From a virus (Duplodnaviria; Heunggongvirae; Uroviricota; Caudoviricetes): 4,204 bases of DNA. The DNA is taken from IMG/VR virus record IMGVR_UViG_2548876940_000010, positions 1 to 4,204 of that record. One strand, given 5' to 3'. A program made the position numbers and the translations under genes. The notes beneath the pieces were generated by a model, which saw only the letters and a list, made by a program, of their open reading frames with translations, ran no database searches and was not told the origin of the DNA. Positions within the stretch are counted from its first letter, which is position 1. The number at the start of each line of letters is the position of its first letter. This document shows, one piece after another, positions 1 through 4,204 of this stretch.

Positions 1-17
1 GAAGTAATACCCGCACG

Positions 18-296
18 TTACCTCCAGATGCGTTGCTGGAATGTGCGGGACGGACGTGGTGGGCGCTCGGAGTAAGGAAGCCTGACGGAGATTATCCAGT
101 GACGATAATCGAGGCTGAGGGCTTTCTTAATCTCGTATCCGTGTCTGCGGTAGCACTGAATTAGCCACTCGGCCTGTTCTTCAGTGCATGGGGGATGCTG
201 GAACCAGTCAGATTTGAAAGTGCGGGAACGCCGCCCGTGCCTGCTGGCAAAGACGGCAGAATCATCAGAATTGTGTAATTTGGTATCGTGCGCCAT
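18..296 (-). CDS. Hypothetical small basic protein (92 aa from the only in-frame ATG); function unknown
   Basis: Minus-strand ORF ending at TAA (18-20). The track ORF starts at a TTG (375-377) that lies inside the U-tract of the upstream terminator, so the only in-frame ATG (294-296) is the more plausible start, though its SD is weak (AGAGA). Protein is Arg/His/Trp-rich with no recognised motif. It sits where the nin-region genes begin in lambdoid phages. Confidence 0.4.
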   Translation of the reverse strand: MAHDTKLHNSDDSAVFASRHGRRSRTFKSDWFQHPPCTEEQAEWLIQCYRRHGYEIKKALSLDYRHWIISVRLPYSERPPRPSRTFQQRIWR

Positions 297-347
297 CGGT
301 TGTCTCTGCTGGCGCAGCAGGTGCCAGTTGTTCAGGCTGGCGTGCGA

Positions 348-377
348 ATTGTAAACCAGAATGCCAGGAAAAAACAA
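348..377 (-). promoter_or_regulatory. Candidate sigma70 promoter for the 18..296 ORF (TTGTTT -35, 18-nt spacer, TACAAT -10)
   Basis: On the minus strand, TTGTTT (complement of 372-377) and TACAAT (complement of 348-353) are separated by 18 nt. The -35 lies within the U-tract of the hok terminator. Sequence-pattern match only. Confidence 0.3.
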
Positions 378-395
378 AACCCGCCGAAGCGGGTT
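368..395 (-). terminator. Rho-independent terminator ending the hok transcript
   Basis: On the minus strand: perfect 7-bp stem AACCCGC/GCGGGUU (378-384 pairs with 389-395), UUCG tetraloop (385-388), immediately followed by UUGUUUUUUCC (377 down to 367). Lies about 70 nt downstream of the hok stop codon. Confidence 0.7.
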
Positions 396-399
396 AAGT

Positions 400-414
400 G
401 CGGGTGCGTTGAGG
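400..414 (-). promoter_or_regulatory. fbi-like 3' element of hok mRNA, complementary to the 5' end (tac) of the same transcript
   Basis: The minus-strand RNA here reads CCUCAACGCACCCGC, which pairs with the predicted 5' end GCGGGUGCUUGAGG (790..777) as 14 bp with one bulged base. This matches the fold-back-inhibition arrangement described for plasmid R1 hok mRNA. Confidence 0.5.
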
Positions 415-463
415 ATGCCTGATTCATCAGAGGTGGCGAGGGATTTCTCCCTCGCCGGGTCTC

Positions 464-619
464 TTACTCCTCAGGTTCGTAAGCTGTGAAGACAGCGACC
501 TCCGTCTGGCCGGTTCGGATTCGTACCTCGCAGAGGTCTTTCCTCGTTACCAGTGCCGTCACTATGACGGTTAAACAGATGACGATCAGGGCGATTAACA
601 TCGCCTTTTGCTGCTTCAT
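464..619 (-). CDS. hok: Hok/Gef-family type I toxin (51 aa, small membrane-depolarising peptide), HokD/RelF-like
   Basis: ATG at 617-619 (minus) preceded by SD AAGGAG at about 9 nt; stop TAA at 464-466. Product MKQQKAMLIALIVICLTVIVTALVTRKDLCEVRIRTGQTEVAVFTAYEPEE aligns nearly residue-for-residue with E. coli HokC/Gef and HokD as recalled from memory. It has the expected N-terminal transmembrane helix and the conserved TRKDLCEV...GQTEVAVF...YE core. Confidence 0.9.
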   Translation of the reverse strand: MKQQKAMLIALIVICLTVIVTALVTRKDLCEVRIRTGQTEVAVFTAYEPEE

Positions 620-676
620 AGCCTGCTTCTCCTTGCCTTTCGGCGCGTAAGAGGCTAACCTACATATGTCTAGCAT
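464..676 (-). CDS. mok: Mok-like reading frame (70 aa), an in-frame N-terminal extension of hok used for translational coupling
   Basis: ATG at 674-676 (minus) with GAGG about 7 nt upstream. The N-terminal MLDICRLASYAPKGKEKQA parallels the MokC extension MLNTCRVPLTDRKVKEKRA recalled from E. coli K-12. Same frame and stop as hok. Confidence 0.6.
   Translation of the reverse strand: MLDICRLASYAPKGKEKQAMKQQKAMLIALIVICLTVIVTALVTRKDLCEVRIRTGQTEVAVFTAYEPEE
633..661 (+). promoter_or_regulatory. Predicted Sok antisense RNA promoter (TTGCCT -35, 17-nt spacer, TAACCT -10)
   Basis: Plus-strand hexamers at 633-638 and 656-661 with a 17-nt spacer, located inside the mok N-terminal coding region. Position and sequence align with the R1 sok promoter (TTGCGC, 17 nt, TATCCT) as recalled from memory. 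The -10 is weak by consensus. Confidence 0.4.
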
Positions 677-740
677 GAAATTGGCCTCAGATTAATGTTA
701 GGCGTCTTGCAGGACGCGTAATGTTAACTGGGGCTTTTCT
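668..740 (+). ncRNA. sok: Predicted Sok-like antisense RNA; ends approximate
   Basis: Plus-strand segment downstream of the predicted promoter, antisense to the mok start codon (674-676) and mok SD (about 685-688) on the hok mRNA. Contains a 5-bp stem-loop (702-706 pairs with 713-717) and a U-rich stretch CUUUUCUCU (about 734-742). No canonical GC-stem plus U-tract terminator is evident, so the 3' end is uncertain. Confidence 0.4.
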
Positions 741-794
741 CTGTCTGCCTTACGGTGGCATGCCCGAGGCAGACAGCCTCAAGCACCCGCAGCA

Positions 795-822
795 ATTCTA
801 CTTAACTCTCGCTTTACCGCAA
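795..822 (-). promoter_or_regulatory. Predicted hok/mok promoter (TTGCGG -35, 16-nt spacer, TAGAAT -10), TSS near 788-790
   Basis: Minus-strand TTGCGG (complement of 817-822) and TAGAAT (complement of 795-800). The predicted transcript start GCGGGUGCUUGAGGCUGUCUGCCUC closely resembles the R1 hok mRNA 5' end GGCGCUUGAGGCUUUCUGCCUC (from memory), including the tac hairpin GAGGC-UGUCU-GCCUC. Transcript length to the terminator is about 420 nt, comparable to the roughly 400-nt R1 hok mRNA. Confidence 0.5.
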
Positions 823-864
823 ACCGTTTTTACCCGATATAGGAATTCCCATATCGTAATGAAT

Positions 865-969
865 TCAGTTCCCTAGTCGATCCATCAAAAACACAACCAG
901 GCAGTAAACGCCCACAACAGCAATAACAGCCAGCGCACCTTCTATTGCCAGTGAAATATCATCCGACAT
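865..969 (-). CDS. Small hydrophobic protein (34 aa, predicted single transmembrane helix); not in the supplied ORF track
   Basis: ATG at 967-969 (minus) preceded by a near-consensus SD (AAGGAGGG, 4-5 nt spacing); stop TGA at 865-867. Hand translation: MSDDISLAIEGALAVIAVVGVYCLVVFLMDRLGN, an acidic N-terminus followed by about 20 consecutive hydrophobic residues. No homolog recognised. Confidence 0.45.
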   Translation of the reverse strand: MSDDISLAIEGALAVIAVVGVYCLVVFLMDRLGN

Positions 970-1087
970 ATTCCCTCCTTTGGTGTGAATCCCGGCGAAC
1001 GTTTTTACCCCCACCGACAAATAACATATACTAAAAAATCAATAGCTATAGCAACGCCTGTAATTGCAAAGGCTTCAGGCCAGATCA

Positions 1088-1729
1088 TTAGCGCACCTCC
1101 TGCGGCGGTTCTGGTAGCGGCATCCAGTCGGTTACATTGCGGCTCTGTGTTTCGAAAAATTCATCACCATTACGGACTACATCAAAAAACTCACCGTCTC
1201 GATATTGCGCATAAAGAACGAATGCGCCATCACATAAAATAATTACGTGCTGACCATCATCCGGCATTCGCTCACTACAGCTTATCCAACCATCCGGAGT
1301 TACCGGATAGTTGGTTGACGTTTCCGAGATTTCCCGAAAATTATTGGTTGACGAACCCTTATTTTCCCGAAAGTTTCCAGCCTGAAGCATGGCGGCGCTG
1401 TCTGGCGGGGCAGCATATAGCGGCACGTATATTTCCGGTTCCTTATCAGCACCGGGTTGCTCTTCCAGTGAGAATGTCTTTCCGGTAAATCGATTCATAT
1501 AAAGCACGGGCTCTGCTTCCAGCGAAGCCTGAGCAACAAGGGCCAGTGCTAAATCCAACTCAATTGCCTCGAGAGAATTTTTGAATGCTGTCTGTTTTAC
1601 TGCAAATTTCATCGCCTTTACATTTTCACTAACATGACTGATTAACTGCTCTTTTGTAAAAGTGGTCATCTCATTCTCCTTTGATGCGAATGCCAGCGAC
1701 AATTGAAGCCTGATAGCTAATTCACTCAC
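1088..1729 (-). CDS. Phage protein with C-terminal DUF551-like domain; function unknown
   Basis: 213-aa ORF. The C-terminal segment GWISCSERMPDDGQHVIILCDGAFVLYAQYRDGEFF...VTDWMPLPEPP matches the DUF551 pattern recalled for enterobacterial phage proteins (W-I-S...LP..G..V......A.Y.DG.......VT.WMPLPEPP). Start is ambiguous: a GTG at 1727-1729 overlaps the upstream stop (GTGA) with AGGAGG 7 nt upstream, or an ATG at 1667-1669 with AAGGAG 6 nt upstream would give 193 aa. Confidence 0.7.
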   Translation of the reverse strand: MSELAIRLQLSLAFASKENEMTTFTKEQLISHVSENVKAMKFAVKQTAFKNSLEAIELDLALALVAQASLEAEPVLYMNRFTGKTFSLEEQPGADKEPEIYVPLYAAPPDSAAMLQAGNFRENKGSSTNNFREISETSTNYPVTPDGWISCSERMPDDGQHVIILCDGAFVLYAQYRDGEFFDVVRNGDEFFETQSRNVTDWMPLPEPPQEVR

Positions 1730-2121
1730 AGTACCGCCTCCTGAAAATTGCCCTGATAGAACGCCAGTACACGCAGCATAACTTCACTCTTCCGGCACTC
1801 GCCACAGATTATGTTCTGTTGTCTGTCGTAGCGGCGTATTTCTCCGTCTGGTAACTTTCGAATCAATGTCTGGTCGGTTGCTTTCTCCGCTGCCTTACGC
1901 CATACGCGATACACCTGTTCTGATGTAAAAACACCATATTTACCGGGCATGTATAAATCGCCACAAGCCAGTACATCCACAAGGCAACGTCTGACTGAAT
2001 GCCAGCCTGCTCCCGTCGCTCTCTCCAGTTGTGATATCGTCATGCGTTCATTTTTGCGTACCAGCCCGATAATTCGGGCCTTCAGTTCTTCACGCTGTTC
2101 GTGTGTAAAAGGTTTCGCCAT
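1726..2121 (-). CDS. Lambda Ren-like protein (131 aa): predicted winged-helix N-terminus plus conserved C-terminal C-x2-C-R...RVLA.Y motif
   Basis: ATG at 2119-2121 with GGAGG 7 nt upstream; stop TGA at 1726-1728. The C-terminus ICGECRKSEVMLRVLAFYQG resembles the lambda Ren C-terminus FKECRQSAAMKRVLAVYGVKR as recalled from memory. Lambda ren also lies just downstream of the replication genes. Assignment is memory-based. Confidence 0.6.
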   Translation of the reverse strand: MAKPFTHEQREELKARIIGLVRKNERMTISQLERATGAGWHSVRRCLVDVLACGDLYMPGKYGVFTSEQVYRVWRKAAEKATDQTLIRKLPDGEIRRYDRQQNIICGECRKSEVMLRVLAFYQGNFQEAVL

Positions 2122-2136
2122 AAGCGCCTCCGGCTA

Positions 2137-2907
2137 TCACTTTTCCGATACAACACGGCGGGAAGAATCAGTAATCTGTCGAACAATATCCCGGTGCTTG
2201 TTCAGCTCCCGCAGAGCGGCGCAGACTCGCTCCCACTTCTGAACATCACTTTTCGCCCTGCGCAGCGCCAGGTTTGCCCTGCGAAGGGACGGAAAAATCA
2301 GCTCATCTGCTTGCGTTTCGGTAAACGATGGCAACGGCTGCACAATGTCCGCCACAGTTTCTGTTTTAATTTCTTCCTGTGTTGCGGCTTCCCGGACTGG
2401 TAACGCAGCACCTGCTGGCTGAGGAAAGGCCTTACCATCATTTTTCGTTACCGGCGCGGCTTTCGGATCTGCTGGTAAATTACCCCCCGACATGCAGTAA
2501 CGAAATTTACCGTTCTGATTAACGCGTGCCAGCCGCCCCGTTGCGGTTACCACCGCCAGCGTGGAAGCAACCTTGCGAGTACTGACGCCGAACTTACCCG
2601 CCAGTTCCTCACACGTTTTAGCACCATCCTGACCGATAAACTCAACCATCATGTCTGCGGTAACTTTTGGAGCGACCTCTTCGGTTACCACATCCGGCGC
2701 TTCAGGTTGTAGTGCCTGCCCTTCGGTTACCCCGGCTTCACCTTCGACAGCCAGAAACCAGGTGTGACCCGTTTTATCAACAACGCCATTTTTTTTGAGT
2801 TCCCACAGTTCGTTAAGAACTTCTTCACGGCTGATATCAAGCCGCGCCGCCAGTTCAACAGAATTGGCTTTTCCCATCGCTTTCAGTGCATGCAATACAG
2901 TTTCCAT
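2137..2907 (-). CDS. Phage hypothetical protein (256 aa) with two winged-helix-like segments and a basic C-terminal helical tail; function unknown
   Basis: ATG at 2905-2907 with GAGGT upstream; stop TGA at 2137-2139. Two HTH-like segments (SVELAARLDISREEVLNELWELKKNG and CEELAGKFGVSTRKVASTLAVVTATGRLARV) are separated from the C-terminus by a Pro/Ala-rich linker. Long, clean ORF tightly spaced with its neighbours (25 nt from the DnaC-like stop, 15 nt to the Ren-like start). Possibly DUF1627-like, but this is not verifiable without a search. Confidence 0.75.
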   Translation of the reverse strand: METVLHALKAMGKANSVELAARLDISREEVLNELWELKKNGVVDKTGHTWFLAVEGEAGVTEGQALQPEAPDVVTEEVAPKVTADMMVEFIGQDGAKTCEELAGKFGVSTRKVASTLAVVTATGRLARVNQNGKFRYCMSGGNLPADPKAAPVTKNDGKAFPQPAGAALPVREAATQEEIKTETVADIVQPLPSFTETQADELIFPSLRRANLALRRAKSDVQKWERVCAALRELNKHRDIVRQITDSSRRVVSEK

Positions 2908-2932
2908 CGAAAATTTACCTCGTCAAAAATTC

Positions 2933-3673
2933 TCACATACCCTGACGTCCAACGTTTGACCGCCAGCTCTCCCAGTTAAAATTCACCCAACGACCACCAT
3001 TCATGGTCATACGGTCCATCACCCGATCTCCGAGGAGTGTGCTCATCGCTGCGTGATTCAGGTTCGTCAGCATTCCGACACTACGCATCGAAGCCGTTCT
3101 GCGGTCGACTATCTGGTTCAGCGTGACCTGCTCGTTGCGCGTATCCCGCTGCATGCCAATTTCATCAAGGACCAGAAGGTCAACTCCACAAAGCTCCTGT
3201 AAAAATTTTTCCCCGGACTGGCCGTTGTCGTAGCCGTCATGCAACACGCTCATGACATCGGACACGGTGACGATAATCACGCTTCTCCCCTTCGCCATCA
3301 GCCGATTGCCAATCGCTGCTGCCAGGTGATTTTTACCGGTACCAGGTTTACCGCTGAACACGAAGTTTGTACATCCGGTCATCAATTCATCGGCAATGGA
3401 TTTCGCCTGGCTCAGAGCATGGCGCTGACCGTCGTTCTGCACCCGGTAGTTCCCGAATGAGCACTTCCTGTGAAGCGGCTGGATGCCCGCACGGTTCAGG
3501 ATTTTTTCAACCCGCACCTGATGATTCAGGCGGTTAATCTCCTCGCTGCGTTTTCGTCCTTCAGCAAGTTGCCATTCCCGCCACTCCTCCACCGTCCGGT
3601 ACGGTGGAACCGCCCCCTGTGGTGCAAGTCTGCGAATACGTTCAAGAACCCCAACTGCCGCAATGTTTTTCAT
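2933..3673 (-). CDS. dnaC: DnaC-family AAA+ helicase loader (prophage replication protein, DnaC/YdaV-like)
   Basis: 246-aa ORF, ATG at 3671-3673 (minus). Walker A FSGKPGTGKNHLAAAIG and Walker B LLVLDEIG are present. Colinear similarity to E. coli DnaC as recalled (MKN..., RSGI.PLH..CSF.NY, FSGKPGTGKNHLAAAI, QIVDRR, GMLTN.N, LLG.RVMDRM, W..FNW.S.RS). The start lies 7 nt after the stop of the upstream DnaT-like gene, the same arrangement as the chromosomal dnaT-dnaC pair. Confidence 0.93.
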   Translation of the reverse strand: MKNIAAVGVLERIRRLAPQGAVPPYRTVEEWREWQLAEGRKRSEEINRLNHQVRVEKILNRAGIQPLHRKCSFGNYRVQNDGQRHALSQAKSIADELMTGCTNFVFSGKPGTGKNHLAAAIGNRLMAKGRSVIIVTVSDVMSVLHDGYDNGQSGEKFLQELCGVDLLVLDEIGMQRDTRNEQVTLNQIVDRRTASMRSVGMLTNLNHAAMSTLLGDRVMDRMTMNGGRWVNFNWESWRSNVGRQGM

Positions 3674-3679
3674 GACACG

Positions 3680-4204
3680 TCACCCCCTGAATCCCGGCGG
3701 TATTTCAGTGTCCGGTTCAGAAATATGATTCACACAACGCTGGTTGTTCGTGCCGCTTACCGGGAGCAACCAGGGGTTTTCAAAATTCCGGTCCGGCCCA
3801 AAAAACGTCGTCGCTCGCTGAACAAATTCCGTTCCCGCTTTCCCGGTCGCCGCCAGGTATCTTGCGTAACGCCTCACACCATCCAGCATGGTCTCTGGTG
3901 GCACCCCCTCGCGCAATCTGGCCTTCCAGGCACTGAAAGCGGATTTCTTCGGGTTTGCCCCGGCACGCAACGGGTATTCCCGCCAGACCTGTTCGAACAC
4001 ATCCGGATAATCCACTCGTCCCACAGGCTGCCCGGTGTTTTCCGGGGCTACCCGATCGGCTTCCCGCTGAATGGCGGAATCGGCTTCAGGCTGCTGCAGT
4101 TGGAGTGATTGCTCCGGCCTTGCGGTCATCACCTGCTGCACAGCGCCCGAATCGGCTTCCGGTGTCGTGCCTGCTGGCTGACCAGGATTGACGGTCTGAA
4201 CATC
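3680..4204 (-). CDS. Phage replication protein with DnaT-like C-terminal domain (primosomal protein I-like); 5' end lies outside the window
   Basis: The frame is open from the window edge (4204) to the TGA at 3680-3682; the M in the track is an internal GTG. The C-terminus ...NHISEPDTEIPPGFRG matches the DnaT C-terminus ...NTVSEPDSQIPPGFRG (from memory). It is coupled to the DnaC-like gene. True start and full length cannot be determined from this window. Confidence 0.8.
   Translation of the reverse strand, partial: DVQTVNPGQPAGTTPEADSGAVQQVMTARPEQSLQLQQPEADSAIQREADRVAPENTGQPVGRVDYPDVFEQVWREYPLRAGANPKKSAFSAWKARLREGVPPETMLDGVRRYARYLAATGKAGTEFVQRATTFFGPDRNFENPWLLPVSGTNNQRCVNHISEPDTEIPPGFRG

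Follow-up and report, generated by a model that had tools for sequence, protein, structure and literature searches.

Long-range pairing between the 5' and 3' ends of a predicted hok mRNA in a hok/sok-family module of a lambdoid prophage

The reference system for the hok/sok family of type I toxin–antitoxin (TA) modules is hok/sok (parB) of plasmid R1. A summary of the model for its mRNA, with tac/fbi and ucb/dcb pairing and a metastable hairpin, is available (PMC9841398, citing Thisted 1995, Franch 1997, Gultyaev 1997 and Steif & Meyer 2012): a metastable hairpin on the nascent transcript gives way to a closed tac/fbi RNA with the Shine–Dalgarno sequence (SD) held under ucb, and 3' processing then yields an open tac/ucb form that is translatable and accessible to Sok. 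The closest studied relative of the locus described here is hokW-sokW of Sakai prophage 5 (Sp5/VT2-Sakai, among the 933W-type Stx2 phages), which has been found experimentally to be a functional type I TA system, with shorter hokW RNA species that were seen and left unassigned (PMC8621323). We analyzed a 4204-bp stretch of tailed-phage DNA (IMG/VR record IMGVR_UViG_2548876940_000010, positions 1 to 4,204; hereafter the window), and our analysis indicates that its minus strand between 368 and 800 very probably carries a complete hok/sok-family type I TA module within a lambdoid prophage, together with the known folding programme of hok RNA.

The assignment to the family begins with the protein and the leader. 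The toxin open reading frame (ORF) at 464..619 on the minus strand (51 codons, with an SD GGAG at 629-632) encodes a product that matches Pfam PF01848 HOK_GEF (E = 2.9e-23; 81.6 bits, cutoff 22), and in the closest genome match to the window, at 99.1% identity, RefSeq labels the same frame "type I toxin-antitoxin system toxin HokD". The hok 5' leader, 614-788(-), matches the full length (1-157) of the Rfam model RF01794 with 114.3 bits (gathering score 59) and E = 2e-26; this family is named "sok", and its model is derived from the leader in the sense of the hok mRNA. All parts expected of a module are intact, namely the -10 box, tac, the partner of the metastable hairpin, ucb, the mok SD and ATG, the predicted Sok promoter and terminator, the hok ORF, the 3' hairpin, fbi and a terminator. 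An earlier sequence-only reading of this DNA had suggested that a fold-back of the 3' end locks the 5' end of a hok mRNA able to form mutually exclusive local hairpins, and this proposal is borne out by the Pfam and Rfam matches, by the computed folds, by the position of the 3' partner in 45 of 50 related loci and by compensatory changes among them.

The plus-strand sequence at 400-414 (gcgggtgcgttgagg) had been described as an imperfect inverted repeat of 777-790, and we recover the same complementarity. As minus-strand RNA it forms a helix of 8 bp from G790-C400 to C783-G407, a bulged C408, and a further 6 bp from U782-A409 to G777-C414; a repeat finder returns a perfect 9-nt core at 399-407/783-791. 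The minimum-free-energy (MFE) fold of 368-790(-) contains exactly this 777-790/400-414 helix (-181.9 kcal/mol, z = -8.8 relative to dinucleotide shuffles), and each of its pairs has a probability of 0.97-1.00 in the full-length ensemble, whether the RNA is started at 790 or at 788. In the terms used for R1, the 5' arm is the tac element (GGGUGCUUGAGG, 777..788, minus strand), which forms the mRNA 5' end, has three alternative partners and lies in a DNA complementarity that runs on to 790/791, while the 3' arm is the fold-back inhibitory (fbi) element CCUCAA-C-GCACCC(GC) at 400..414 on the minus strand, the partner of the 5' end, in which C408 is bulged. Holding 402-414 single-stranded raises the energy by 12.2 kcal/mol and sends the 5' end into the tac stem instead. 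One might ask if such complementarity could have arisen by chance, GC-rich and structured as the region is, and serve no function. The energy of the duplex between the 12-mer that begins at the likelier RNA start and the 96-nt 3' untranslated region (UTR) of the same RNA, -21.1 kcal/mol, was matched in 7/3000 UTR shuffles and 9/3000 5'-end shuffles preserving dinucleotides, and a second complementary site, outside the mRNA, reaches -18.6 kcal/mol. However, the -26.9 kcal/mol of the 14-mer was matched in 0/3000 of either kind of shuffle, and both the fixed position of the partner across genera and the compensatory changes (see below) speak against coincidence, which we consider extremely improbable.

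The length of this helix depends on where transcription starts. The putative -10 hexamer of the hok promoter, TAGAAT at 795..800 on the minus strand, was assigned a function from its sequence and conserved spacing, and 16 nt separate it from TTGCGG at 817-822(-), a weak candidate for the -35 box. A -10-like hexamer occurs at a fixed distance, ending 6 nt before the first column of our alignment (G788), in 28 diverse hok loci, with variants that include TAGAAT (in the window), TATAAT, TAAGAT, TACAAT and others. A strict consensus scan called a sigma-70 site for neither hok nor sok, and both promoter assignments are based on conserved position and homology. The R1 hok mRNA begins GGCGCUUGAGG, which corresponds to column 2 of the alignment. 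From the conserved spacing, the hok RNA of the window most likely starts at G788 or G787, so that the helix comprises 11-12 bp and the bulge rather than 14 bp. The pairing and the single bulge of the closure first proposed thus stand and its length is reduced, as the pairs 789/401 and 790/400 may lie outside the transcript; the complementarity 789-791/399-401, upstream of the likely start, is also not kept in other hok clades. Judged by the promoter spacing, the terminator and the Rfam leader match, which starts at 788, the predicted full-length mRNA spans 372..788(-), about 417 nt, and ends in the U-tract that follows a predicted intrinsic terminator at 368..395(-) (stem 395-378, UUCG loop, U-rich tail), the hairpin of which is also present in the MFE fold. 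The hexamer ACCCGC occurs twice on the minus strand, once within fbi (405-400) and once within the terminator 5' arm (394-389), and either copy could pair with the terminator 3' arm GCGGGU (379-384) or with the GCGGGU at the mRNA 5' end.

The same 5' nucleotides have two local partners. The first is a metastable 5' hairpin predicted for the nascent transcript at 760..786(-), with 11 bp (786-776 with 770-760) and a UGUCU loop, which is the MFE structure (-18.8 kcal/mol) of the first 30-50 nt. Part of it is the GAGGC/GCCUC stem that the sequence-only reading had called the tac hairpin; that stem is present (780-776/775-771/770-766), but in the nomenclature of PMC9841398 it belongs to the metastable hairpin. 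The second is the tac stem-loop at 730..788(-), predicted for the processed, active form, in which 788-786 and 784-781 pair with the ucb sequence AAGCCCC at 736-730 below an apical stem of 776-764/755-741. It is the MFE structure of 5' fragments of at least 60 nt (-34.2 kcal/mol) and agrees with the consensus structure of RF01794. The direct path from the metastable hairpin to the tac stem crosses a computed barrier of about 10-15 kcal/mol, which is consistent with a kinetic trap.

In the full-length MFE fold the 5' end is on fbi, the apical stem is retained, and ucb is paired with the mok SD region. A 9-bp stem at 741-749/768-776, with an 18-nt loop holding GGCATGCC at 757-764, had been listed earlier as a separate alternative; it does form, but it belongs to the apex of the tac stem-loop and occurs together with the tac/fbi helix in the full-length MFE fold, so that it excludes only the metastable hairpin. 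The nucleotides of the mok SD, except its A, have an unpaired probability of 0.00-0.01 in the full-length ensemble, their partner being the ucb region. Folding the RNA at full length and after 3' truncation, as had been suggested, gave the expected switch: the ends pair in the full-length molecule, and without the 3' terminal ~40-60 nt the 5' end moves to the upstream box. In RNAs shortened to 420-430, just 3' of a stem-loop in the 3' UTR, the 5' end returns to the tac stem.

This 3' UTR stem-loop (435..456, minus strand) was correctly described in the sequence-only reading as a 9-bp stem (435-443 with 448-456, 9/9 paired) and a GAAA loop. The processed mRNA is predicted to end in this hairpin, which by analogy with R1 (PMC9841398) would be expected to block 3'-to-5' exonucleases. 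The region 374-455(-), which spans the 3' hairpin, fbi and the terminator, also gives a sub-threshold match to the Rfam isrK family (RF01394; 27.7 bits with a gathering score of 50, E = 0.0035). A derivation of IsrK from a hok 3' UTR was considered and rejected, as no isrK match was obtained for L082, a prophage locus of Salmonella in which hok is degenerate, and a different origin of isrK has been proposed in the literature (PMC8825220); the match probably reflects a generic resemblance between hairpin-plus-terminator sequences. Weak Rfam matches to ceN48, the speF leader and CsrC fall far below their gathering scores and were taken as chance.

Conservation across the family was examined in loci found with a three-member Hok alignment and one genome per species (80 loci); our MAFFT alignment, A3, comprises 50 distinct full-length mRNAs that carry the CUUGAGGC core. 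The best downstream partner of the 5' 12-mer starts 34-47 nt past the hok stop codon in 45 of the 50, among them loci from Escherichia, Shigella, Kluyvera, Citrobacter, Photorhabdus, Pantoea, Enterobacter, Buttiauxella, Leclercia and other genera. The five that depart from this position are visibly damaged or gapped copies; damaged copies in the set include L004, which has a mutated 5' end, and L019, L050 and L066, which are without the 3' complement. L004 is a second copy in E. coli ECMA0423, with an identical Hok and an intact 3' UTR and fbi, whose 5' end reads CTGCATGTGGCTATGTGCC instead of GGGTGCTTGAGGCTGTCTGCC; judged by its sequence, it is an example of a hok copy with a decayed tac.

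Columns 1-12 of the alignment are nearly invariant except at the covarying positions 4, 11 and 12. Within the upper tac/fbi helix, five pairs are almost invariantly G-C or C-G, and column 4 with column 457 reads C-G in 23 loci, U-A in 22, U-G in three and another combination in one. In the lower helix, when read in the proper register, GAGG/CCUC is replaced by GAGA/UCUC in Photorhabdus and by GAAG/CUUC in Citrobacter, and the hokC clade uses G-U wobbles; G-U pairs in this helix point to selection on the minus strand at the level of RNA. The changes from G to A at columns 11 and 12 are compensated in both the fbi partner and the metastable partner. For the metastable hairpin, column 4 with 28 is U-A in 24 loci and C-G in 15, column 12 with 20 is G-C in 21, G-U in 19 and A-U in 10, and over the 50 loci 88.8% of cells are paired, with double changes in three pairs. 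Tabulated as triples of the 5' nucleotide and both its partners, UAA occurs 22 times and CGG 13 times. Such covariation in both partners is, as read from these alignments, the published "coupled covariation" signature of the hok family; coupled covariations were reportedly used by Gultyaev et al. in 1997 to argue for a conserved hok folding pathway. The remaining stems behave in a similar way: the tac stem has 88.5% of cells paired, with covariation in the apical stem, and is the RNAalifold consensus; its basal tac/ucb helix (788-781 with 736-730) is 95.7% conserved in pairing but invariant, and hence shows zero covariation; and the 3' UTR hairpin at 435-456 has 87.8% of cells paired, with double changes in five pairs. 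The loss of compensatory conservation of the 5'/3' pairing had been named beforehand as the outcome that would contradict the fold-back, and the homologous loci show the opposite, a conserved 3' complement with compensatory changes.

These patterns also bear on the possibility that the repeat 399-407/783-791 acts as DNA, either as the terminal inverted repeats of a mobile hok/sok cassette or as a recombination site. The repeat brackets the module almost exactly, its 9-nt core reaches 1-3 nt beyond the probable transcription start, and hok modules are found at differing sites in various phages and plasmids, all of which favors such a role. However, in other clades the helix is maintained by G-U wobbles that would amount to A-C mismatches at the DNA level and on the opposite strand, and the 5' nucleotides involved also covary with another partner nearby, which is explicable only by an RNA folding pathway. 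The extension past column 1 is not conserved, and K-12-type hokD loci retain the 3' arm without the 5' arm. We therefore regard a role at the DNA level as very unlikely, and prefer the reading of the repeat as the closing helix of the hok mRNA.

Several observations weigh against a confident reading of this locus as a working hok module. For this copy, transcription, the RNA ends, 3' processing and toxicity are all predicted. The aligned loci were chosen by the presence of the CUUGAGGC motif, hence decayed copies are excluded from the comparison. The covarying positions are few (3-4) and structured by clade, so that the independent events behind them may number only 2-4. The fraction of paired tac/fbi cells, 82% and 76% in two registers, is close to the 81% and 73% of column shuffles; this small margin is due to the invariance of most columns and to the MAFFT alignment, which puts the lower helix out of register between clades, a shift that arises from the restriction of the C408 bulge to the hokD/W/C clade. 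RNAalifold on the whole-mRNA MAFFT alignment gave the tac/ucb stem and did not recover the tac/fbi helix, which we attribute to the one-column register shift and to competition for the same 5' nucleotides; the tac/fbi pairs were accordingly counted separately in registers with and without the bulge. Finally, the accessibility of the mok SD in the thermodynamic ensemble did not clearly differ before and after 3' truncation, and we dropped it as evidence.

A related question is whether the window holds a decaying or silent prophage copy in which the pairing is a fossil, its elements kept by descent and recent spread while the locus lacks expression or has lost its killing activity. Inactivation is frequent among chromosomal hok loci, the loci we retrieved include the damaged L004, L019, L050 and L066, and K-12-type relBE-hokD loci are without tac, ucb, mok and sok. 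Copies related to the 433-nt hok mRNA region are present in 4015 of 5426 complete E. coli genomes (median 2, maximum 9 per genome), and as many as nine related copies would relax selection on each. Against this, every element of the module is intact in the window, copies of 99.5% identity are widespread, the differences from hokW are compensatory in two stems, which argues for purifying selection on the structure, and hokW itself is functional (PMC8621323). We thus consider a silent or decaying copy unlikely and favor an intact module. Related copies are also found on P1-like and other plasmids.

Taken as an intact module, the locus suggests the following sequence of events. According to the computed folds, the first ~30 nt of the transcript would form the 11-bp metastable hairpin, and once ~60 nt had been made the thermodynamically better tac stem-loop, with the 5' end on ucb, would become available. 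In the complete RNA, fbi (402-414) would take the 5' end into a 12-bp bulged helix, with a gain of ~12 kcal/mol over the best alternative, and this tac/fbi closure would free ucb to cover the mok SD; deletion from the 3' side as far as the 435-456 hairpin would return the 5' end to ucb. By homology with R1 hok, the closed full-length RNA would be stable, untranslatable and refractory to Sok, and slow exonucleolytic trimming from the 3' end would halt at the 435-456 hairpin after fbi had been lost. The refolded RNA would then, again as in R1, either be captured by Sok and cleaved by RNase III or, once Sok has been degraded, be translated via mok to yield the Hok membrane toxin.

The mok-like reading frame lies at 464..676(-) and has 70 codons, with its ATG at 676-674 and a GAGG (685-688) 8 nt upstream. 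Throughout the family an ATG is retained 57-58 nt before that of hok; in the window, as in the hokD/W/C and Photorhabdus clades, the distance is 57 nt and the two share a frame, so that the predicted product is a 70-aa, N-terminally extended Hok. The predicted Sok antisense RNA occupies 668..738 on the plus strand (~71 nt), preceded by a candidate -35 TTGCCT (633-638) and -10 TAACCT (656-661) with a 17-nt spacer, and ends in a hairpin (683-729) followed by a U-run; its fold has -34.3 kcal/mol and z = -5.5. The length is the same as the 71 nt of complementarity given for sokW (PMC8621323).

If these features of the hokD/hokW/hokC clade, i.e. the C408 bulge and the in-frame mok with its 70-aa extended Hok, did define a kinetic variant of the hok switch, a speculative idea that we hold to be rather unlikely, then the bulge, the fused mok and the shared copies could tune the timing of activation to prophage induction. 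Near-identical tac, fbi and Sok-target sequences are common to as many as nine prophage copies per genome, and under the same premise the Sok of one prophage could silence the hok mRNAs of others, giving a cross-talking network.

As for the genomic setting, every gene in the window is on the minus strand; among them are a replisome organizer fragment, an IstB/DnaC-like ATPase, and DUF1627, DUF977 and DUF551 proteins, followed by a small gene and an intergenic region. By its annotation, this gene set resembles the replication/nin region found in lambdoid (Rac/Qin-like) prophages of E. coli, with the hok module flanked by replication genes and by DUF968/RusA nin-like genes. Directly upstream of the module are two small hydrophobic ORFs at 865-1020(-) (34-51 aa) and 1005-1088(-) (27 aa). 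A Pfam scan gave no match for either, and RefSeq limits its annotation to 865-969, given as hypothetical; the two may encode small peptides of the membrane. A near-perfect 22-bp palindrome, CGATATAGGAA followed with zero spacer by TTCCCATATCG (10/11 complementary), is located at 835-856, directly upstream of the -35 region of hok. A U-run is absent after it on both strands, so that it is not an obvious terminator, and it could be a candidate protein-binding site. Among the retrieved loci, enterobacterial hok genes also occur on contigs L011, L021, L028, L063, L064 and L065, labeled Veillonella parvula metagenome-assembled genome (MAG), Acinetobacter idrijaensis, Xanthomonas pisi, Ferruginibacter MAG, Streptomyces morookaense and Oscillibacter; several of their Hok proteins are 96-100% identical to that of the window and others are R1-type, and these contigs probably reflect assembly contamination or mis-binning.

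The pairing of the ends is thus real and non-random, but it is an already known, textbook property of an annotated and very common family. The fold-back lock, the alternative tac stem and the metastable hairpin were established for R1 in work of the 1990s, in which coupled covariation also reportedly showed their conservation across the family. What the present analysis adds is a prophage copy of the hokD/hokW type with a full and intact regulatory set, unlike K-12 hokD, along with exact coordinates of its elements, a corrected RNA start and a corrected nomenclature. These should be of use for annotation and for the study of hokW-type modules in Stx and other lambdoid prophages.

In comparison with the known systems, the module is nearest to hokW-sokW, with which it has ~92% nucleotide identity throughout. 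The -10 box, tac (GGGUGCUUGAGG), the metastable hairpin and fbi (UCCUCAACGCACCCGC) are identical and the Hok proteins nearly so, and the in-frame mok and, as predicted for the window, a Sok-complementary region of ~71 nt are common to both (PMC8621323). The loop of the tac stem-loop differs, and substitutions are compensated in the apical stem and in the 3' hairpin. After fbi the window continues into a clean intrinsic terminator, whereas the Sp5 sequence diverges, and the genomic positions are different, the module of the window lying between replication genes and DUF968/RusA nin-like genes. With R1 hok/sok, the window has in common the order of the elements and the three alternative partners of the 5' end, as well as the CUUGAGGC core, an fbi ~40-50 nt past the stop codon, a 3' hairpin before fbi and a Sok, predicted in the window, opposite the start of mok. 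However, Hok is only ~43% identical, the R1-type tac/fbi helix has no bulge, has one internal mismatch and starts one column later, mok in R1-like loci starts 58 nt upstream of hok in the +1 frame rather than 57 nt upstream and in frame, and the tac stem-loop of R1-like loci is ~20-30 nt longer.

The Hok of the window is 100% identical to that of hokD (relF) in the relBE-hokD operon of the K-12 Qin prophage, hence the RefSeq name of the gene, and the 3' UTR hairpin, fbi and terminator are near-identical. In such K-12-type loci (L005, L010, L027 and L031), however, relE replaces tac, ucb, mok and sok and leaves an "orphan" fbi, whereas the set in the window is complete. Finally, hokC (gef) and other chromosomal hok loci have the same 5' 12-mer, an fbi with the same bulge (UCUUCAACGCACCC) and an in-frame mok, but differ in a Hok identity of 80-82%, in G-U in place of G-C in the lower helix and in a shorter Sok-target hairpin, and some of the chromosomal copies, e.g. 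L019, have a disrupted 3' region.

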